Shown here: positions 12,255-23,267 of the stretch, piece by piece | Layout of the letters: each line of letters opens with the position of its first letter | Position numbering within the stretch: position 1 is the stretch's first letter | From: a phage | NCBI GenBank assembly: GCA_012338575.1 | Contig: GCA_012338575.1_3616.1 | Length of the DNA: 64,000 bases | Strand: one strand, 5' to 3' | Position numbers and translations under genes: made by a program | The notes under the pieces: model-generated | Told to the model about the DNA's origin: nothing | The model's input: the letters and a program-made list of their open reading frames with translations, nothing else | Databases searched by the model: none

Positions 12255-12470
12255 TCAGTCCAGCGGTTCATCCTCTACTTCACTGAAATCAATGTTCATG
12301 GTCTCTTCCCAACCATCGATCTCAGCACAAGAGTGGAGTTCTTTAGGGTTTACTCCCAAAGCCTCAGCAACAGAGTCTATATTTAACACCTCTGGCAGGT
12401 ATGATTCATCGAATTCAAGGTAAATCAGGCCACGAGTGTTGTCAGCTCCACCAAATATTTCTATCTTCAT
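12255..12470 (-). CDS. hypothetical acidic protein (71 aa), last gene of leftward block
   Basis: ORF with SD GAGGAG before ATG. Confidence 0.5.
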   Translation of the reverse strand: MKIEIFGGADNTRGLIYLEFDESYLPEVLNIDSVAEALGVNPKELHSCAEIDGWEETMNIDFSEVEDEPLD

Positions 12471-13057: not shown

Positions 13058-13378
13058 TTAGAGCTTTTTGCGGTCCAGAACCTGCTTACGTTGAATAAAG
13101 TGCATAAACGTCTCAGCCCATGAGCAATTCTGATACTCTCGGTACTTATGCATTGCCTGACGGCTCACACCGTATTCTGCAGCAAATGTGGAGACACGTA
13201 GAAAATCTGGCAGATCATCATCTTCAAAATATACAGTGCTGAGAGCAATATCGTTATCGTCGTATAGAACAATTTTCATAGATGATACCTCAAGATGTTG
13301 GTGGTTTAGGAAAACAGCCAAATTCTTTCTAAAGCGCTCTATAATGAGATTATCTGTACAAGGTATGCAATCGTGCAC
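13058..13378 (-). CDS. hypothetical protein (106 aa)
   Basis: ORF in leftward array. Confidence 0.4.
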   Translation of the reverse strand: MHDCIPCTDNLIIERFRKNLAVFLNHQHLEVSSMKIVLYDDNDIALSTVYFEDDDLPDFLRVSTFAAEYGVSRQAMHKYREYQNCSWAETFMHFIQRKQVLDRKKL

Positions 13379-13434: not shown

Positions 13435-13746
13435 CTATACCCATGAGGGCTTATCAAGGTTGGAGTAGCTGAAAGGTGTCAAAAGGTGACTGTCAAAATC
13501 TCTCAAACTATCCAGATCTTTTTCCTCGTCCTGACACCATCTGTGCCTACATTTATTGTTGTAGTGCATGGAATGCATAGCGTTCTGCAACTTAACAGGC
13601 ACAAGTGATTCAGGGGTAGATAGTATTGTTGGGTATGCCAGAACCACCTCAAACAGTGGAAACACATCGAAACTAAAGTCTACCTCTGCAGAGGTTGATG
13701 GCATGTAGGAGTATTTAGCCGCCTTTGTAGACATAATCCACCCCAC
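13435..13746 (-). CDS. hypothetical protein (start uncertain)
   Basis: ORF overlapping 3' end of upstream gene; start may be internal Met. Confidence 0.3.
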   Translation of the reverse strand: MGWIMSTKAAKYSYMPSTSAEVDFSFDVFPLFEVVLAYPTILSTPESLVPVKLQNAMHSMHYNNKCRHRWCQDEEKDLDSLRDFDSHLLTPFSYSNLDKPSWV

Positions 13747-14069
13747 ACAGGTTTGATAATACCTTCACCGAATAACTCTTCATATCTAATCTTATCCGGA
13801 TCCCACTCCTGGATAATTTCGAAGACAATATCCAACCCTGGGATAATCACTTCTCCAGTGTCAAGTTTGGCAAGAACAAAACCAGAAGGCTGAATGGTTT
13901 CCCAGTTTCTACGATTGGAATAGAAGACCTCGAAAATATCACCGACCTTGATCTGTTGATCAAGATGCTCAAGGTTCTCTTTCATACGGATGCAGCGGAT
14001 TTTTCGTGCAGGCCATAGACCACCTGCATCACGTTCATTCAATTCTTTTACAGTGATCGGTATACCCAT
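13680..14069 (-). CDS. hypothetical protein (129 aa)
   Basis: ORF in leftward array. Confidence 0.45.
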   Translation of the reverse strand: MGIPITVKELNERDAGGLWPARKIRCIRMKENLEHLDQQIKVGDIFEVFYSNRRNWETIQPSGFVLAKLDTGEVIIPGLDIVFEIIQEWDPDKIRYEELFGEGIIKPVWGGLCLQRRLNTPTCHQPLQR

Positions 14070-14091
14070 CTCAAATCTCCTTCATAGATAG

Positions 14092-14116
14092 TAAAAAGAG
14101 GGGCCCAAGCCCCTCT
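14092..14116 (-). terminator. hairpin terminator (leftward)
   Basis: GAGGGGC-ccaa-GCCCCTC flanked by A-run/T-run. Confidence 0.5.
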
Positions 14117-14124
14117 CTTTGTCA

Positions 14125-14430
14125 TTATTCTACAGAGCGTTTGAACAGAATGTCTGCCTCGGACATGTGCTCAACCTCTTCTTCGATTTTAGCTCGACGT
14201 TTTTCAGCCTCATATCGAATATCGAACTCGGTAGCCACCAGAGATTTGATGAATTTAGGAGAATACAGATGATCCTGCTTCTCAACAAGAATGATATCCT
14301 TGATGGCATCTTTCAGATCTTTAATCTGAAGTTGGAGTTCCACCAGTTCTTCGATTGTTTTGCGAAGGCGATCACGCTCTGCAGTGTCAGAAGGAAGAGA
14401 GGTGAACAGTTCAACTTTAGATTTAGCCAT
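14125..14430 (-). CDS. coiled-coil protein (101 aa)
   Basis: ORF; heptad-like charged sequence. Confidence 0.45.
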   Translation of the reverse strand: MAKSKVELFTSLPSDTAERDRLRKTIEELVELQLQIKDLKDAIKDIILVEKQDHLYSPKFIKSLVATEFDIRYEAEKRRAKIEEEVEHMSEADILFKRSVE

Positions 14431-14458
14431 AGTAAGAGTCTCCTTATGTTGTTTTAAA

Positions 14459-14710
14459 TTAACGTTCTACAAAAATACCGTTCAGTTCAATAACCAGGAA
14501 TTTCTGGTCTTCACTATCGTCTCGTGCCAGCACCTCACAGACGTATCGGTCATCCCCATCATCATCGCAGTCAAATACAAGACTGAGGACTTTATCATGA
14601 TAAACCTTCGCCACTACCGCCTCGTAAGTATTGCCGATTGTGAATCCAAGATAATCTCCGATGCATTTGACAACAACATGGTCGCCAGCATTCAAGTCAA
14701 TCTTCGTCAT
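14459..14710 (-). CDS. hypothetical protein (83 aa)
   Basis: Start at internal ATG preceded by AAGGAG. Confidence 0.45.
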   Translation of the reverse strand: MTKIDLNAGDHVVVKCIGDYLGFTIGNTYEAVVAKVYHDKVLSLVFDCDDDGDDRYVCEVLARDDSEDQKFLVIELNGIFVER

Positions 14711-15835: not shown

Positions 15836-16185
15836 TATTCGTTCTCCTCTGTGGTGCCTGCTTCCAGTAACAAGTTAAGAATATCTTCTGCACAAGGCTC
15901 ATAGAACTCTTGGCCTTCATTATCAATGATTCGGTAGTCATCCCCGCGAATAATCAGAGGATCACTCTCAAAATTATCGAGACCTTTAACAACGACAACA
16001 CGATCGATTGCCATCATTGTAAGAACTTTATCGACATCTTCCTCTGCTACACCGTACTGCAGCAGAATGTCTTTAGTAGGAGGAACAGCATCCACCACAA
16101 CACCGTTACCAAAACCTTCCGGAAGTTCAGCTAAAATATCTTCCGGAACCACATTAACATCAAAACCAGTAATTTCTACTTTCAT
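15835..16185 (-). CDS. small acidic protein, possible distant member of paralog family A (116 aa)
   Basis: N-terminus MKVEITG...; acidic. Confidence 0.45.
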   Translation of the reverse strand: MKVEITGFDVNVVPEDILAELPEGFGNGVVVDAVPPTKDILLQYGVAEEDVDKVLTMMAIDRVVVVKGLDNFESDPLIIRGDDYRIIDNEGQEFYEPCAEDILNLLLEAGTTEENE

Positions 16186-16446
16186 TTACAGCACCTCTTC
16201 GTCAACTACTTCATAAAAATGGCCTGGGATTGCAATAGCGTTCTCACCTTCACCTACAAACACAGTTCCGTCAAGAATCAACATCATAAGAATTTCTGGA
16301 ATATCCTCTTCCGGAACGTTGCCAAAACCTTTAATCAGCGTGTAGGTTGGAAGATTTACCTCTAAGATGTCACCATCTTTAGAGCGGAAATCAACACCAT
16401 CCTGAATCTCTGCCATTTCAAGGTTTTTCAGTTTAATCTTCATCAA
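16186..16446 (-). CDS. small acidic protein, paralog family A (86 aa)
   Basis: MMKIKLKNLE... ends FYEVVDEEVL. Confidence 0.5.
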   Translation of the reverse strand: MMKIKLKNLEMAEIQDGVDFRSKDGDILEVNLPTYTLIKGFGNVPEEDIPEILMMLILDGTVFVGEGENAIAIPGHFYEVVDEEVL

Positions 16447-16522
16447 TCAGTCTCCTGTCTTGTTAAGATGAAGGTATTATTTCACACAGGGTTGGTGTTG
16501 TCAACACCTGTGTGCAAGAAAA

Positions 16523-16918
16523 TTACTGAAACAGTGCGGATAAATTACCTTCTGGTGGGAACTTATCTGCCAAAAACGGTGTTAGCACAGTAGCCTTCTG
16601 AAGATCTGGGGTCCACTCGTTGTTCAGAACATCCCAGTAGTACGCAATGTTGCTGTGTGGGTGCCGCATTACGAACTTTTTCCCTTCGTAATCATCTGAA
16701 ACCTCTACAGAAGAAATAACAACAGAATCTTCAAGGGTTTCTTCATAGAAAGATCCGCCTTCAAATTTCCAACGAGATGCAAGAGCCCCTGCCTTGAACG
16801 CTGCAGATAAAGGACTGTCGGCAAGAACATACATTTCTTGCACTCTGTCGCTGCGATCTTTGCTTCTTACATTGTATACAGTATCTGAGCTATACTCAAC
16901 ACGGTATAGTCTTACCAT
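16523..16918 (-). CDS. hypothetical protein, paralog family B (131 aa)
   Basis: Shares KKFVMRHPHSNIAYYWDVLNNEWTP motif with 18725-19123 (VFVIVHPDSRVKHYWNARTKTWTP). Confidence 0.5.
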   Translation of the reverse strand: MVRLYRVEYSSDTVYNVRSKDRSDRVQEMYVLADSPLSAAFKAGALASRWKFEGGSFYEETLEDSVVISSVEVSDDYEGKKFVMRHPHSNIAYYWDVLNNEWTPDLQKATVLTPFLADKFPPEGNLSALFQ

Positions 16919-17250
16919 TACCGCACCTCCTCAATAACTTCCACATCTGAACCTACCACAAATGCAAAAGGACAGGTTTCATGAAAGACATCCGGATCGC
17001 CGCCAAGCTTGCTAACAATCTCTCCACCACTAATAAACACAAGCTCACCGATATTCATAAGATTGCTGAAATAGTACCCATAATGATTAAAGAATGCAGC
17101 AGGGTCAGGTAGACTAGTGGCCTCAAGCACTACATCGGTTGAGGTTACTTTCTTATCATAACCTCTCGCCTTTTGAGATGCGAGATCTGCAGAATCCTCA
17201 GGCGACCGGAGATGCACAGGAATTGTTTCACCAATAAAGCGTACTTTCAT
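16918..17250 (-). CDS. small acidic protein, paralog family A (about 110 aa)
   Basis: Starts MKVRFIGE (internal ATG after GGTGA), ends SDVEVIEEVR. Confidence 0.45.
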   Translation of the reverse strand: MKVRFIGETIPVHLRSPEDSADLASQKARGYDKKVTSTDVVLEATSLPDPAAFFNHYGYYFSNLMNIGELVFISGGEIVSKLGGDPDVFHETCPFAFVVGSDVEVIEEVR

Positions 17251-17254
17251 ATTA

Positions 17255-17518
17255 TCACCCAACAACCATAACTTCAAAAGGGGTCATGAACGAATAAACG
17301 GCATCATCATCTGCTTCAAGGAATGCTCCCAAAGACTTCATGTCTGAGCCCTTGACAAATACAAGGTTTTGATCAAAAGCTTCTTGAGGATCAATCCGAT
17401 ACATATTTCGTAGAATATCGCTTATCTCCTCATCAAGAGGTGAGTATGCTGTGCACGTTTTTCCGATCAAGCTTTGAGAATCAGGGTATCCACCTGAAGT
17501 TTTAAAATAAACAATCAT
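17255..17518 (-). CDS. small acidic protein, family A-like (87 aa)
   Basis: LVFVKGSDMKSLGAF resembles family A core. Confidence 0.45.
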   Translation of the reverse strand: MIVYFKTSGGYPDSQSLIGKTCTAYSPLDEEISDILRNMYRIDPQEAFDQNLVFVKGSDMKSLGAFLEADDDAVYSFMTPFEVMVVG

Positions 17519-17609
17519 ATAGTATCACCTCTGGTAAGAGATTGGGATTCCTTTCCCACAAATAATTACAAACCTTCCTTATCGAGGAAGTATGCTAATC
17601 CAAGCAGGA

Positions 17610-17879
17610 TTATTCCTCTACAATCTCATACACATCCGGAGTTACAATCAACTCTTCTCCGTTACCCGGTGCAACAAACACCACCATTCCTTCAGGTGTG
17701 TGCTTTTTAGCCATCTCGATAACATCTTCTCGCAGAGCTGGCTCCATCAGATCAAAACCTTCACCTAGGGCATCACGAACCACCTTCATATAGTCAACTG
17801 GTTGTGCTTCGACAATCATGCCTTCAACCAGTCCACAGTTTTTGTCTGCCAGCTCAGTTTTGAATAATTTAATTTTCAT
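17610..17879 (-). CDS. small acidic protein, paralog family A (89 aa)
   Basis: MKIKLFKTELAD... ends DVYEIVEE. Confidence 0.5.
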   Translation of the reverse strand: MKIKLFKTELADKNCGLVEGMIVEAQPVDYMKVVRDALGEGFDLMEPALREDVIEMAKKHTPEGMVVFVAPGNGEELIVTPDVYEIVEE

Positions 17880-18016
17880 TTAGAGGTCTCCTCAATTATT
17901 TGATATTAATAGCCGTAACCTAACACATTAACTACAACTGCGATTGCAAACATAATTTCAAAGCATGCAATCTCTACATTCGGGACTAATTTCTTAATCA
18001 TGCCCATTGTAGCACC

Positions 18017-18334
18017 TCATTCTCCAAAGTCAATCTTTACTTTGCCTTTCCCTTTACCTTTCTTTCCACCGCATTTAGCCAGCTGACGTGCTGCAACATC
18101 TACCATACGGTCAGTTGCCTCGTAAGCATCACTACCTTTAGCCTTGGCAATAACTTCTTTTCCAGAATTGTCAAAAATGAGCGCCATAACTTCCTGGTGA
18201 TCATTTTCAACTTTTACACTCACACGTGCATAGTTGGCAGAGGGGTGCAAACGCTCCAGCTTAGACATTTTGTGGGAAATGAAAGACACCATACCTTCAG
18301 TGATTTCTACGTTGCCAGTGATTTCAATTTGCAT
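18017..18334 (-). CDS. hpf: ribosome hibernation promoting factor / RaiA-family homolog
   Basis: MQIEITGNVEITEGMVSFISHKMSKLERL...VKVEND...DAYEATDRMVDVAARQLAK matches recalled E. coli HPF (MQLNITGNNVEITEALREFVTAKFAKLEQY...VLKVEK...DMYAAIDGLIDKLARQL) along its length. Confidence 0.7.
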   Translation of the reverse strand: MQIEITGNVEITEGMVSFISHKMSKLERLHPSANYARVSVKVENDHQEVMALIFDNSGKEVIAKAKGSDAYEATDRMVDVAARQLAKCGGKKGKGKGKVKIDFGE

Positions 18335-18416
18335 AACGTGTTCCTTTTAAAGAAGAGGGAACCAAACCCTCTTTGAAAACAATGATACTAAATCTGAAGC
18401 GTTGTGTCAACAGTTT

Positions 18417-18707
18417 TTACAGCTTGTTGTCGATAGTTTTTAAAATATCCACAGCAAGATCTGCCATTTTTCGAACATACTCTGCAAACTCAACAGGATC
18501 CTTGATCAAAGAATTCACAGGGTCGTACCCTAGAGCGTTTAAAATGGCTGCAGCATCTACAACCTTCTCATCATTTGCGAAGATCTCTCCGTCAAACTTG
18601 TAGGTCCATTTTGAGTCAACCTTAGCAGAGCAGGGTTTGTCCATGCTTGTTACACCATCGTCTTTAAACTCTCCTGCGTTATCAATATTTAGAATTAAAT
18701 CCATCAT
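18417..18707 (-). CDS. hypothetical protein (96 aa)
   Basis: ORF in leftward array. Confidence 0.45.
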   Translation of the reverse strand: MMDLILNIDNAGEFKDDGVTSMDKPCSAKVDSKWTYKFDGEIFANDEKVVDAAAILNALGYDPVNSLIKDPVEFAEYVRKMADLAVDILKTIDNKL

Positions 18708-18724
18708 GGTGACACCTCACTGTT

Positions 18725-19123
18725 TCAGTTTAGCCTTTCTTCAACAACCCCATAACTTGGGGCAGAGTCAAGAGCTTTCTGGTTTAAAAGTGGAGTAGCA
18801 GAATCTGCAAACGGTGTCCAAGTTTTTGTTCTGGCATTCCAGTAATGCTTCACTCTGGAATCTGGATGCACTATAACAAAAACTTTTTCACTTGTCAACA
18901 CATTAATTTCTTCTACACCCTTGCTGATAATTTCTCCGTCATAGCCCCCAGTCTGGTATCCTTCGTACCAGGTTCTTGCATAGGCATAGCCAGCCTGCCA
19001 GCATGCAGCCTCCTCCGAGGTGGAGACTACGTAGAAGTCTTTCTCAAATTCTGGAATACGCCCTTGCTTTACGCTCCAAGCCCCGCGAATTTTCATTGTA
19101 ACTTTAAACAGTTTATTTTTCAC
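18725..19123 (-). CDS. hypothetical protein, paralog family B (132 aa)
   Basis: See 16523-16918. Confidence 0.5.
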   Translation of the reverse strand: MKNKLFKVTMKIRGAWSVKQGRIPEFEKDFYVVSTSEEAACWQAGYAYARTWYEGYQTGGYDGEIISKGVEEINVLTSEKVFVIVHPDSRVKHYWNARTKTWTPFADSATPLLNQKALDSAPSYGVVEERLN

Positions 19124-19135
19124 AACGGTTACCCA

Positions 19136-19390
19136 TCACAGCTCTACAATATCTGCATCTGACCCTACCCCAAAGGCATAGTAGGACTCTTCCCCGAAAT
19201 AATATTCAGGTGCACCAGCGGTGATCAGGTCTGATCCCAAGATAAACACCACGTTGTGGCCTACATAACCGTGATGTTGCCGCACAGGATCATCCCACGG
19301 CAACCCTTCAAAGTATACCGCAGGAACGACCTTTCCATTCAGGAAGGATTGTCCCAAGTAGACGTTAGAATCAAGAATTTTAACCTTCAT
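19136..19390 (-). CDS. small acidic protein, paralog family A (84 aa)
   Basis: MKVKILDSNVYLGQ...GSDLITAGAPEYY...DADIVEL. Confidence 0.55.
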   Translation of the reverse strand: MKVKILDSNVYLGQSFLNGKVVPAVYFEGLPWDDPVRQHHGYVGHNVVFILGSDLITAGAPEYYFGEESYYAFGVGSDADIVEL

Positions 19391-19607
19391 GATCGTCCTC
19401 CACTACCTCTACATCCTCACCTAGGGCAAAGTTGTAGGTCCACTGACTGTCAAAGCATTCCTGAGATGCACCAGCGGCAATAAGATCTGCTCCTTTTATT
19501 TTTAAAAGGTCAGGGTAATCTTCGTTAGGGACAGCAGTAAACACTTTTCCTACTAAAGGCTCCTGACCAATATAGAAGCTTGAATCTAAAACTTTAACTT
19601 TCATCAA
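19380..19607 (-). CDS. small acidic protein, paralog family A (75 aa)
   Basis: MMKVKVLDSSFYIGQ...GADLIAAGASQE...DVEVVEDD. Confidence 0.55.
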   Translation of the reverse strand: MMKVKVLDSSFYIGQEPLVGKVFTAVPNEDYPDLLKIKGADLIAAGASQECFDSQWTYNFALGEDVEVVEDDHEG

Positions 19608-19891
19608 CGGTCTCCATCAGGTGGTTGTGGGACGTAAACACTGTTACGAATATCGTCCGCAGTATAGTAATAAGTGTCTCCAACCCTATCTCTGGCTGCA
19701 ATGTACTCTGCTATACCAATAAGTGCCATTGATTTGGTGGCGTATCTTCCCAACTCGTTAGCTCCCCAGTAGAATTTAGACCAATAGGGAATAAGACCGA
19801 ACAAATATACCTTTTGACGAACTTCCCAGTAAGTGCCTTTCCCGACAAGTTTAAACTCAACTTCACCACTGTTAATCTTTTTCATTATCAA
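19604..19891 (-). CDS. hypothetical protein (95 aa)
   Basis: ORF, overlapping stops/starts. Confidence 0.45.
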   Translation of the reverse strand: MIMKKINSGEVEFKLVGKGTYWEVRQKVYLFGLIPYWSKFYWGANELGRYATKSMALIGIAEYIAARDRVGDTYYYTADDIRNSVYVPQPPDGDR

Positions 19892-20184
19892 TCTCCCTCT
19901 ACCGTGGTCGGATTGTCAGTAAGAAATTGAGCATTAGCTGGAGGCACGCCTGACATTTTCCACACAACCATAAGTTTGTAACCAGGCACTCTATTAAGCG
20001 CAGATCGAGTAGAGTTTGTGCACGTATACTTTCGCTTTCCAAACCCGTTCTCCATCATAATCCAGTACCCAGTATCTTTGTCACCAGGTATTGGTAGACC
20101 ACCTTCATCAACCCACTGAATGGACCACGGCACGATGGCTACAGCTTTATATTTAAACTTTTTAAACCACTCAAAAAGTTTCAT
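19888..20184 (-). CDS. hypothetical protein (98 aa)
   Basis: ORF in array. Confidence 0.45.
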   Translation of the reverse strand: MKLFEWFKKFKYKAVAIVPWSIQWVDEGGLPIPGDKDTGYWIMMENGFGKRKYTCTNSTRSALNRVPGYKLMVVWKMSGVPPANAQFLTDNPTTVEGD

Positions 20185-20279
20185 AATTCAGCCTCGCATA
20201 GACATAATCACTATAAACAGGCAAACAATGAATCCGAATGCCACGCCACCCATAAACGTTAATATTGATGCAATCATAG

Positions 20280-20465
20280 TCAATCAGCCTCGCTTGGCAA
20301 CTCTTCTACCTTAACATGCCGAAAAGTGTTACCGTAATGGTTGATCCAGGACATCAGCTCACTTTCTTGCTCTTCCTCTGAGATGGACTCTCGAATGCTG
20401 ACAAGTTTTAAGAAAACCCAATCACAATCTGCACCCATTCTACCAGACAGACAATAATGCTTCAT
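20280..20465 (-). CDS. hypothetical protein (61 aa)
   Basis: ORF in array. Confidence 0.35.
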   Translation of the reverse strand: MKHYCLSGRMGADCDWVFLKLVSIRESISEEEQESELMSWINHYGNTFRHVKVEELPSEAD

Positions 20466-20484
20466 AAAAACCCTCCACCCTGGT

Positions 20485-20685
20485 TTAGAATACTGCCTCT
20501 TTTAATGATCCAAGGAGCAGCAGGTGTGAAATCTGATCCACATTCATGGTAGATTCAATCTCCTCTTTTTTGAAAGGTTCTCGGCAAAACAGAACTACAT
20601 TTGGGTTTTCGCTACGCACTATATAATACAGATCGTTCAAATCATTCTCATAGTAGGTATTAAATTTAAGAATTTTGTCACTCAT
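20485..20685 (-). CDS. hypothetical protein (66 aa)
   Basis: ORF in array. Confidence 0.4.
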   Translation of the reverse strand: MSDKILKFNTYYENDLNDLYYIVRSENPNVVLFCREPFKKEEIESTMNVDQISHLLLLGSLKEAVF

Positions 20686-20969
20686 TTTCTAATCCTCTTC
20701 TTAGATTTTTGGGGAGAAACGCTTTCTGCAATACGAGACAAACGTTCTTCTGAAGCCTTGCCTATTCCAGGTTTTTTGAGTGGATTATCTTTATGACCAC
20801 AATCCAATTGGATATTGGATACCTCTCCAACCTTGTAAGTTAATTCTAGCAAAAGGTTGTCGTCCTTGTCAAATGTTCTTACGATAAATTTTTTATCGTT
20901 CTCCTGAACTTCATATCTGGTACCTGCAGTATACAGCATGGTGCCATCAGTGTAGGATATCCAAATCAT
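20682..20969 (-). CDS. hypothetical protein (95 aa)
   Basis: ORF in array. Confidence 0.45.
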   Translation of the reverse strand: MIWISYTDGTMLYTAGTRYEVQENDKKFIVRTFDKDDNLLLELTYKVGEVSNIQLDCGHKDNPLKKPGIGKASEERLSRIAESVSPQKSKKRIRK

Positions 20970-21313
20970 TGCACCTCCTTCTGCTGCAACAGCATTAACT
21001 CTTTGTTGGAAATCTTTACTGCTGTCTTTATTGTTCCATCTTCACGGAACCACGACCAGAATTCTACAGTGTCACCACTATCAAGCAAGGCATGACCATG
21101 GTAAAAATCCTTGTCCTTAGACAGTTTCTCATCTATATCTGCATCGACACATTCGTGATCCATAGCATTTTGCCTGAATGCATCGGTTATGCCAATGCAT
21201 GCCTTGCTCTCAAGACTAGTATATCCAATATCTTTTAATTCAGTTTCCCAAGTCCAGTATCCTACAAAAGCTACAACAGCTACCCACATTAATATCGATT
21301 TAATCTTTGGCAT
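20966..21313 (-). CDS. membrane-anchored/secreted protein (115 aa)
   Basis: N-terminal hydrophobic segment ILMWVAVVAFVGYW. Confidence 0.45.
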   Translation of the reverse strand: MPKIKSILMWVAVVAFVGYWTWETELKDIGYTSLESKACIGITDAFRQNAMDHECVDADIDEKLSKDKDFYHGHALLDSGDTVEFWSWFREDGTIKTAVKISNKELMLLQQKEVQ

Positions 21314-21373
21314 TCTCTCTACCTCTTTCTTAGTTTATTTAGTTATGGCACATCCTTTGTGCCTTATTGCACA

Positions 21374-21835
21374 CTACTTAAACAACAGTTCAAGATAGTG
21401 CAAAATTAACAGAAGTTGAATTACGCCTAGCACAACGGCAAGTATGTTAATCTTAGAATCAAAAAACTTCTTAACTTTTACCCTAAAAGGCTCCTTAATG
21501 TCCTTTACGATCCTATTTATAGATGATTTCATATCCCTGATTACCATCCTGAACATTAGAGACGGATCTTCCTTCTCTGTAACAGAATCGAAAACATACT
21601 CTCTTCGGTCATAAGGACCTCCAGATCTGCGTATTAACCTCTCCACAGAGACCTCGTACGACACACCTGTAACGTAATCATCTATGACAAGGAGTGACGG
21701 GTCTTTATCGTCCAAGGGTATCAAAGTTATCTTTCCAGATTTTGTTAAAATTTCTCCTTTTTCAAGCAAGGTGTACCAATGCTCTCTACCAAGATTGTTG
21801 AGGCACGTTTTTACATATTTAACAAACATCGTCAC
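21374..21835 (-). CDS. hypothetical protein with C-terminal TM helix (153 aa)
   Basis: C-terminus INILAVVLGVIQLLLILHYL. Confidence 0.45.
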   Translation of the reverse strand: MTMFVKYVKTCLNNLGREHWYTLLEKGEILTKSGKITLIPLDDKDPSLLVIDDYVTGVSYEVSVERLIRRSGGPYDRREYVFDSVTEKEDPSLMFRMVIRDMKSSINRIVKDIKEPFRVKVKKFFDSKINILAVVLGVIQLLLILHYLELLFK

Positions 21836-22035
21836 CCCTCATCGCACGTCTGATATAACCACTCTATAAAATCTTGATACCATTCGCCCTCAGAGCGCTC
21901 CGTAGGCCAATAATCTTCACCCTCTCGTGCATTAAAATCTGAGTATTCAACTTTCCACTCCTTTACCAGCTCGTGGAGAAGGTTTTCAGCCTGCTCTAAA
22001 GATTTATTTTTTACCATTGCTGTCTCCTTTTTCAA
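21832..22035 (-). CDS. hypothetical protein (67 aa)
   Basis: ORF in array. Confidence 0.4.
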   Translation of the reverse strand: MKKETAMVKNKSLEQAENLLHELVKEWKVEYSDFNAREGEDYWPTERSEGEWYQDFIEWLYQTCDEG

Positions 22036-22236
22036 GATAGTTATACATCAGAACTACACCACCTAAGATGGCTACCAGTAACAATACCCCAGATAGCATC
22101 TCAATAAACATGGCTTGAAACACTGGAAGGTCTCCCTAAGTTAACGCACCATTTTAAATACATGCTCTTTTCCCATAAAGGTGCCTGGCTAAGATCTGCG
22201 TAGAACGCAATCTCTTTAAGAACAGTATAAACAGTT

Positions 22237-22473
22237 TTAGGTGCGGTCTCCATCCCTACTCTCCTTTTTCTCCTTACGAATATTCTTGTAGTAATCAACT
22301 AGGCACATTATTACGATGAAGATAACAATAGGCCAAAAAGGTGCAGCAGTGATGATGGTGATAAAATCATCAAACTTCACCTTTCGTCTAGACACGATGC
22401 ATATACCTGTCAAGAATACCGCTGTTATAACGGCTATTACCAGGTAACCTATTAGCACAACATTTATACTCAT
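22237..22473 (-). CDS. small membrane protein (78 aa, two predicted TM helices)
   Basis: Hydrophobic segments VVLIGYLVIAVITAVFLTGICIV and ITAAPFWPIVIFIVIMCLV. Confidence 0.45.
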   Translation of the reverse strand: MSINVVLIGYLVIAVITAVFLTGICIVSRRKVKFDDFITIITAAPFWPIVIFIVIMCLVDYYKNIRKEKKESRDGDRT

Positions 22474-22491
22474 TAGCCCTCCCTTTGTAGG

Positions 22492-23037
22492 TTAAATTGT
22501 ATACTGCAGATGGTTGCTGATGGTGTCAAGAAAATTATCCCGTTCTTTCTCAGAGTTTTCACGGGTGTATCTGAAAAACATATCGAGAATAACCTTATTG
22601 ATATATTCCAGCTCCTCTGTGTTCAGGTACTTAGCAGGGTCTACAATGACATCCCAAGTCTCATACAGACCGCACTCATGATACCCCCAACGCTGCTCAA
22701 TTGTCAAGCTGAGTGGCAAATCTTTACCGTCACAAACAACCTTCCATCTACAAATGCTGGTATCTGGGCGTATCTGTGCACGGTATACCTGTACAAAATC
22801 CAGTTTGAATTTGAGGTACTCGTCATACAATTTAAGCACAAAGCTCTCGATTTGGGGAGACACTTTTGCAGCAAACTGTGCGTATTTATACTTGCACTGG
22901 ATGATCTTTCTGCGTTTTGCAGTTAAATTTTTTGCAGCCAGTTGTTCTTCAGTATATCTCCATCTACGATCAACAAACGCAACAGGGTCTTTGTCCCCAT
23001 AGAGGTCTTCCCAGTTAATCAGAAGCATACCTGTCAC
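22492..23037 (-). CDS. hypothetical protein (181 aa)
   Basis: ORF in array. Confidence 0.5.
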   Translation of the reverse strand: MTGMLLINWEDLYGDKDPVAFVDRRWRYTEEQLAAKNLTAKRRKIIQCKYKYAQFAAKVSPQIESFVLKLYDEYLKFKLDFVQVYRAQIRPDTSICRWKVVCDGKDLPLSLTIEQRWGYHECGLYETWDVIVDPAKYLNTEELEYINKVILDMFFRYTRENSEKERDNFLDTISNHLQYTI

Positions 23038-23267
23038 TCCTCCACAACTTCAAGGCCTTTGCCGCCTCGTTCTGGTAGATTACTTAAAGACAGGTAATAC
23101 GTATAGTCAGGAGAGATCCTGCCAGACTCTGCACCTGCAGCTAATAAATCTTTTCCCTTAACCATGACAACATTCTCGTTTGCAGATAGCTGTTTTGCTT
23201 CCACAATTTTACCAACACAGTCAACCAAGGAAGGGTACCCTAAATCTGTAAGAAATTTAACTTTCAT
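23034..23267 (-). CDS. small acidic protein, paralog family A (77 aa)
   Basis: MKVKFLTDLGYP...GKDLLAAGAESG...GLEVVEE. Confidence 0.55.
   Translation of the reverse strand: MKVKFLTDLGYPSLVDCVGKIVEAKQLSANENVVMVKGKDLLAAGAESGRISPDYTYYLSLSNLPERGGKGLEVVEE

Follow-up and report, generated by a model that had tools for sequence, protein, structure and literature searches.

Two small minus-strand genes in a 64,000-nucleotide stretch of phage DNA (contig GCA_012338575.1_3616.1 of assembly GCA_012338575.1; hereafter designated the window) are homologous over their whole length and are best explained overall as products of an old duplication of one ancestral gene, a reading to which we give a probability of roughly 0.8. 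The two genes, c1 (16523..16918; ATG start, 131 amino acids) and c2 (18725..19123; conserved GTG start, 132 amino acids), are separated by 1.8 kb, share a strand, encode proteins of ~15 kDa, and constitute what we call family B. An earlier note on this DNA had described the two open reading frames (ORFs) as sharing an HP.S..YW..WTP motif; both do occur there, on the minus strand, and the two peptides that it quoted were found within the motif segments KKFVMRHPHSNIAYYWDVLNNEWTPDLQKATVLTPFL of c1 (residues 80–116; 16571..16681, minus strand) and EKVFVIVHPDSRVKHYWNARTKTWTPFADSATPLL of c2 (residues 79–113; 18785..18889, minus strand). Judged from its nucleotide sequence, the window is a Vequintavirus, an rV5/FFH2-like Escherichia coli phage: over its full length, the region 16000–19500 shares 98.8% identity with E. 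coli O157 typing phage 14 and 98.7% with FFH2, and the 121 phage records that match it are almost all from Vequintavirus (rV5-like myoviruses). c1 is the ortholog of rV5 gp144 (ORF149, YP_002003646) and c2 that of rV5 gp137 (ORF142, YP_002003639), the rV5 proteins being 96–99% identical to those of the window.

The pairwise alignment of c1 and c2 is significant, bearing out the paralogy that the note had proposed: BLASTP gave 33 identities in 120 positions (28%) with 48% positives (E=1e-11), and the Smith–Waterman score was 113 as against 28.2 +/- 5.0 in 2000 shuffles (z=16.8). Among the 466 window ORFs of at least 40 amino acids, each protein found the other as its sole match (E=3e-9 and 1e-7), the next having E>0.7. 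When the protein halves were shuffled separately, both the N-terminal (z=5.3) and the C-terminal (z=11.5) half scored, showing that the homology spans the full length, beyond the motif. All these matches are at the protein level, and no similarity between c1 and c2 was detected at the DNA level. A family B profile run on the six-frame translation of the 64 kb recovered exactly two copies. An internal repeat between N- and C-terminal halves was also considered and rejected (z about 0).

Both proteins match the PHROG 7379 profile end to end (c1, E=2.4e-66, residues 1–131 on 1–131; c2, E=8.8e-74, residues 2–132 on 1–131), a phage protein family carrying the function label "unknown function". A public catalogue thus already contains the relationship implicitly, and rV5 gp137 and gp144, members of the same PHROG, are the same genes as c2 and c1, respectively, with no difference. 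The paralogy of gp137 and gp144 is undiscussed in the rV5 genome paper (PMC3606486), neither protein is listed in those of its supplementary tables that are in text form, and no mention of these genes, their accessions, or PHROG 7379 was found in the literature searched.

From codon-level comparison, c1 and c2 are real protein-coding genes, each under strong purifying selection. For c1 pooled over eight Vequintavirus sequences, the proportions of synonymous (pS) and nonsynonymous (pN) differences were 0.163 and 0.0098 (pN/pS 0.06), and c2 gave similar values when the fusion in phage Bas59 (described below) was excluded (e.g., pS 0.355 and pN 0.022 for rV5 versus Aya). That the similarity arose by chance, or that the ORFs are not genes, has a negligible probability; only their small size and missing annotation speak for it, against the shuffle z-score, the pN/pS ratio of about 0.06, the orthologs kept in four lineages, and the confident fold prediction given below. 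The c1 ATG is preceded by a GAGGAGG Shine–Dalgarno sequence and overlaps the stop codon of the upstream gene (TAATG), a member of another small-protein family that we call family A. The start of c2 has been annotated less uniformly, several GenBank records beginning it at an internal ATG (19096) to give 122–123 amino acids, as in KP869112 (7726–8097) and V18 (KY683736, 3028–3396; the V18 ortholog also carries an in-frame 3-nucleotide deletion, EKV to KN). These entries are probably truncated, because the GTG and the first nine codons are invariant across the genus, these codons align with the c1 N-terminus and fall inside the first modelled strand (residues 4–17), and the ortholog on L005, an uncultured contig introduced below, likewise starts at a GTG, nine bases past a strong Shine–Dalgarno sequence (GAGGAGG).

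The age of the duplication is apparent from the identities. Each copy is 95–100% identical across 118–119 Vequintavirus records, whereas c1 and c2 share only 27%; the duplication must therefore be old. Three further family members from uncultured phages (P0007 and P0014 from contigs L002 and L014; P0008 from contigs L005 and L016–L019) divide between the two types in the identity matrix, c1 grouping with P0007 and P0014 (38%) and c2 with P0008 (37%), with 25–30% across groups; the sister orthologs are 37–40% identical to their own type. ClpP of the two lineages is 69% and 62% identical to that of Vequintavirus, as compared with 48% for the Seunavirus phage 4MG, on which grounds they are taken as the nearest relatives of Vequintavirus. 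A synteny comparison in related phages, the check that the note had suggested, was run and found one copy in each sister lineage, in its own syntenic slot. On L002 and L014, gene order equals that of the window gene by gene; the single B gene follows a family A gene and fills the c1 slot, and an unrelated gene of 96–104 amino acids (L002 8068–8358, L014 4081–4395) occupies that of c2. On L005 and L016–L019, the single B gene lies between homologs of the window genes at 19604 and 17610, that is, on the c2 side, and the c1 slot is empty.

The simplest reading of this pattern would be a duplication predating the split of Vequintavirus from the sister lineages, followed by reciprocal loss. Thus, the ancestral gene would have been duplicated before the split, the c1 type alone would have survived in one sister lineage and the c2 type alone in the other, and the two types would have drifted apart in charge (isoelectric point (pI) about 4.9 versus 7–8). 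In the window, c1 has a pI of 4.87 and a net charge of −6.3, and c2 a pI of 7.79 and a net charge of +0.7; c2-type proteins range from 6.8 to 7.8, and the c1 type lies at 4.9.

The note had suggested a local duplication, of which the paralogy and the placement of each copy directly downstream of a family A gene stood, while the event appears neither recent nor demonstrably local. A recent tandem or segmental duplication inside this phage genome would agree with the short spacing, the shared strand, and the family A gene before each copy; yet "recent" is refuted by the ortholog/paralog identity matrix, with 27% between the copies against 95–100% among the orthologs of about 119 genomes, and a separate ortholog of each copy occurs in a different sister lineage, without similarity at the DNA level. 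We give this explanation only a very remote chance. Unlikely, too, is the acquisition of one copy, most simply c2, by recombination from an L005-like phage, which would make the pair xenologs. Such a transfer would account for the unrelated gene in the c2 slot of L002 and L014 and for the c2 type alone in L005-like phages, and it would suit a region that is a mosaic of replaceable small genes (e.g., an extra PF27050 gene on L002 and a TnpB insertion on L005). However, the identity of c2 with P0008 (37%) is comparable to that of c1 with P0007 (38%), so any transfer must be as old as the lineage splits; moreover, the A–B arrangement is present at both sites in one genome, and duplication with reciprocal loss accounts for the identical pattern.

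Family B is very small. About five clusters emerged from exhaustive searches covering 5.8 billion proteins and 1.84 billion representatives; a word-indexed search of the 5.8 billion proteins with c1 and c2 returned only near-identical sequences, and the only family members gained from an exhaustive profile search with HMMER were P0007 and P0008. Four long repetitive proteins from the profile search (P0010–P0013) were discarded as repeat-inflated chance matches. When the proteins of the sister lineages were compared by tblastn with 50,697 phage records, matches were confined to Vequintavirus. Neither c1 nor c2 matched any Pfam family at E up to 10, including HPF/RaiA (PF02482) and Ribosomal_L18A, or anything in NCBIfam or among PDB sequences, and PADLOC, whose library is without anti-defence families, gave no match at E up to 1 for c1, c2, P0007, or P0008. 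Detectable members occur only in Vequintavirus and the two uncultured sister lineages, and Seunavirus may hold a remote relative. This candidate, 4MG gp155 (YP_008857410, 185 amino acids), was the second-best match in BFVD after the V18 ortholog (Foldseek E=0.017, TMq 0.54) and the top match of the family profile (E=0.024) among the ORFs of two-thirds of the 4MG genome, neither score being significant alone. The alignment spans the Y-x-I-x-A...AG...R...G helix region, and the 4MG gene is located in the corresponding early-gene block, which lies downstream of ClpP. The protein differs in having at best a degenerate form of the HP.S..YW..WTP motif (YIITDTP...KVWC...KWEE) and an added basic C-terminal tail.

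Fourteen residues are invariant in all seven aligned sequences from four lineages (c2 numbering: Y31, A40, G45, R50, G55, F82, H86, P87, W95, W102, A109, T110, P122, and G125), of which F82, H86, P87, W95, W102, A109, and T110 belong to the motif segment. An AlphaFold2 model based on these seven sequences reached a predicted local distance difference test score (pLDDT) of 81 and a predicted template-modelling score (pTM) of 0.75. In the model, strands 4–17 and 21–34 are followed by a helix (37–53), strands 59–61, 65–73, 81–85, 93–96, and 101–104, a short helix (115–119), and a last strand (126–130). The predicted fold would thus comprise an N-terminal beta-hairpin/helix/strand part and a C-terminal half that bears the motif on strands 81–85, 93–96, and 101–104; the invariant F, H, P, W, and W residues probably form the core or a binding surface. 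Both proteins are probably soluble and cytoplasmic, as suggested solely by their negative grand average of hydropathy (GRAVY) values.

Foldseek found no significant match in the PDB, the chains ranked first being those of eL20 (E 0.15 or higher). Structural alignments with eL20/L18a/archaeal LX (e.g., 4v6u_Bl and 9e6q_AR) gave 9–20% identity, and family B differs from this protein in lacking any sequence similarity to it, in its extra motif-bearing C-terminal half, and in charge, c1 being acidic and c2 near-neutral. eL20 is a basic protein that binds ribosomal RNA; to our knowledge, it occurs only in archaea and eukaryotes, and bacteria have no eL20 site. The modelled likeness would presumably reflect a common simple alpha+beta topology rather than membership, given the missing sequence signal and the acidic or neutral character of the phage proteins. 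T7 Gp2, an RNA polymerase inhibitor (2wnm) and an example of the small early phage proteins that target host machinery, scored far below significance, and family B proteins are twice its size.

The likeness to eL20 would acquire meaning if c1 and c2 were ribosome-associated factors whose N-terminal part has an eL20/LX-type fold and which act with the phage-encoded HPF to reprogram host ribosomes. Consistent with this, Foldseek puts eL20 chains first, and an HPF gene lies between c1 and c2 in Vequintavirus and is linked to c1 on L002 and L014. We nevertheless consider it quite improbable, given the non-significant Foldseek E-values (0.15 or higher), the absence of a Pfam match at E up to 10, the charges (−6 for c1, neutral for c2), the L005 lineage with a B gene and no HPF nearby, and the lack of an eL20 site in bacteria. 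Only a faint chance is given to the more specific form of the idea, according to which family B proteins would be eL20/LX-fold mimics docking on host ribosomes with HPF and selecting which ribosomes translate, with the paralogs serving different ribosome states.

Natural variation bears on whether c2 is needed. EduardKellenberger (Bas59, MZ501061, from the BASEL collection) carries a natural 3.8-kb deletion corresponding to window 18811–22631, which fuses the homolog of a 181-residue gene (22492–23037) to the last ~25–33 residues of c2 (BLASTP aligns residues 100–132 at 79%; the exact c2-derived tail is about 25 residues) and removes two family A genes (A2 and A3) and about ten others. The flanking alignments overlap by 15 nucleotides at the junction, and the chimeric ORF is annotated as a 'putative glycosidase'. 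Bas59 was isolated on K-12 despite this deletion, from which it follows that c2 is non-essential in the laboratory; c1 was kept in every record checked. We suggest, tentatively, that c1 and c2 are accessory binders of host or phage macromolecules, with each subtype having a different target. Under this proposal, they would be non-essential products of an early/middle unit driven by the host RNA polymerase, each paralog would bind and modulate a different host (or phage) macromolecule, and both would belong with factors for host take-over or counter-defence, not with enzymes or components of the virion.

Several points weigh against the explanation of c1 and c2 as anciently duplicated accessory early binding proteins. 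The absence of a second copy from the sister lineages was seen directly only within 5–10 kb of the B gene and, further out, is suggested by the lack of any additional cluster in the database searches. A role in host interaction is suggested only by the gene context, the small size, the dispensability, and the lack of enzymatic signatures, and early expression is suggested by the promoters and the transcription unit. The fold model was built on only seven sequences, and a first model of c1 from four sequences was poor (pLDDT 41). As for a shared origin with the neighbouring family A genes, four to five family A copies lie nearby, so adjacency to c1 and c2 could be a coincidence, and no family A gene adjoins the B gene of L005.

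The note had also observed that c1 and c2 are interleaved with family A genes, which was confirmed (16918–17277, 19136–19390, 19380–19607, and 23034–23267). A1 (16918..17250, minus strand; 110 amino acids from ATG, the frame being open from a TTG at 17277) lies directly upstream of c1 with the TAATG overlap, and A2 (19136..19390, minus strand; 84 amino acids) lies directly upstream of c2 across a 12-nucleotide gap, in tandem with A3 (19380..19607, minus strand; 75 amino acids; 40% identity to A2, E=2e-13). A further copy is at 23034..23267 and a weaker one at 17255..17518. The four to five small paralogs share the consensus MKVK...GK..A...VF.KG.DL..G...Y.F..G.DVEVVE, have orthologs on L002 and L005, and have no Pfam match. 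The sole window paralog of A1 detected by BLAST is A2 (33% identity, E=0.001), a value near the 28% between c1 and c2. A two-gene A–B cassette may have been duplicated, with a later tandem duplication giving A2 and A3, a scheme that fits the sequences. Kinship between families A and B themselves was rejected (hhalign probability 0.1%, E=0.42, 11 columns aligned).

Every gene surrounding c1 and c2 is on the minus strand, within a long leftward series of small genes that lies downstream of PhoH, ClpP, and a methyltransferase, in agreement with a GC skew that is strongly negative between ~14 kb and 50 kb. Between the two genes lies the HPF/RaiA gene (PF02482, E=8.8e-13; 18017..18334, minus strand), a phage-encoded ribosome hibernation factor that has its own strong promoter and is kept on L002 and L014, with none near the L005 B gene. 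A strong sigma-70 promoter identical to rV5 P144 (TTGACA-17-TATCAT; 18382..18410, minus strand) places c1 and c2 in separate promoter-delimited segments of one leftward transcription unit, and a second strong one, equal to rV5 P150 (TTGACA-17-AATAAT with an upstream TG; 16476..16504, minus strand), lies just 3' of c1. Genes 82–163 of rV5 have been assigned to a single transcription unit read by the host polymerase (PMC3606486). Within the c2 coding sequence, a near-consensus sigma-70-like site (18870–18898, minus strand; TTGACA-17-TATAGT with an upstream TG, 11 of 12 matches) has hexamers that are kept in six other Vequintavirus sequences, except that the V18 spacer carries a 3-nucleotide deletion; this site could drive the downstream gene at 18417–18707 or may be conserved simply as coding sequence. 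Right after the c1 stop, a perfect 8-bp inverted repeat (CACACAGG ... CCTGTGTG; 16478–16513, minus strand) encloses a 16-nucleotide loop that includes the −35 TTGACA of P150; it is not a typical terminator, since no T-run follows, and might serve as an operator or form a hairpin in the RNA.

Other observations concern the wider region. The extra PF27050 (Phage_P22_Y8K6) gene in the L002/L014 lineage follows the c1-type gene (L002 10467–10763), and the small-gene block of these contigs exchanges small genes freely; the L005 insertion is an IS605 OrfB/TnpB (Cas12f-like) gene within the early small-gene block (13532–14644). A third, weak paralog pair is present in the window at 12255–12470 and 13058–13378 (minus strand; 30% identity over 60 amino acids, E=1e-4), both members matching one L002 gene (14295–14516). 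Eighteen MG0656xx records labelled as Campylobacter jejuni phages (C5, C7, C9, A112b, and others) are 97.8–98.5% identical to E. coli rV5-like phages in this region, and their host labels look doubtful.

Collectively, the c1/c2 pair is statistically solid yet ordinary, being already catalogued and confined to one phage subfamily. The value of the result is mainly housekeeping, and by itself it makes no open question directly testable. The start codon of the c2 type is settled as GTG, giving 132 amino acids, and a usable predicted fold has been obtained for family B. Two "hypothetical proteins" that carry separate annotations in about 119 rV5-like genomes become a single family, whose two subtypes are old and conserved independently of each other. 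Vequintaviruses are frequent candidates for therapy and are represented in the BASEL collection, and the natural Bas59 deletion, together with sister lineages that carry a single subtype, provides ready-made material for probing the roles of these accessory genes.

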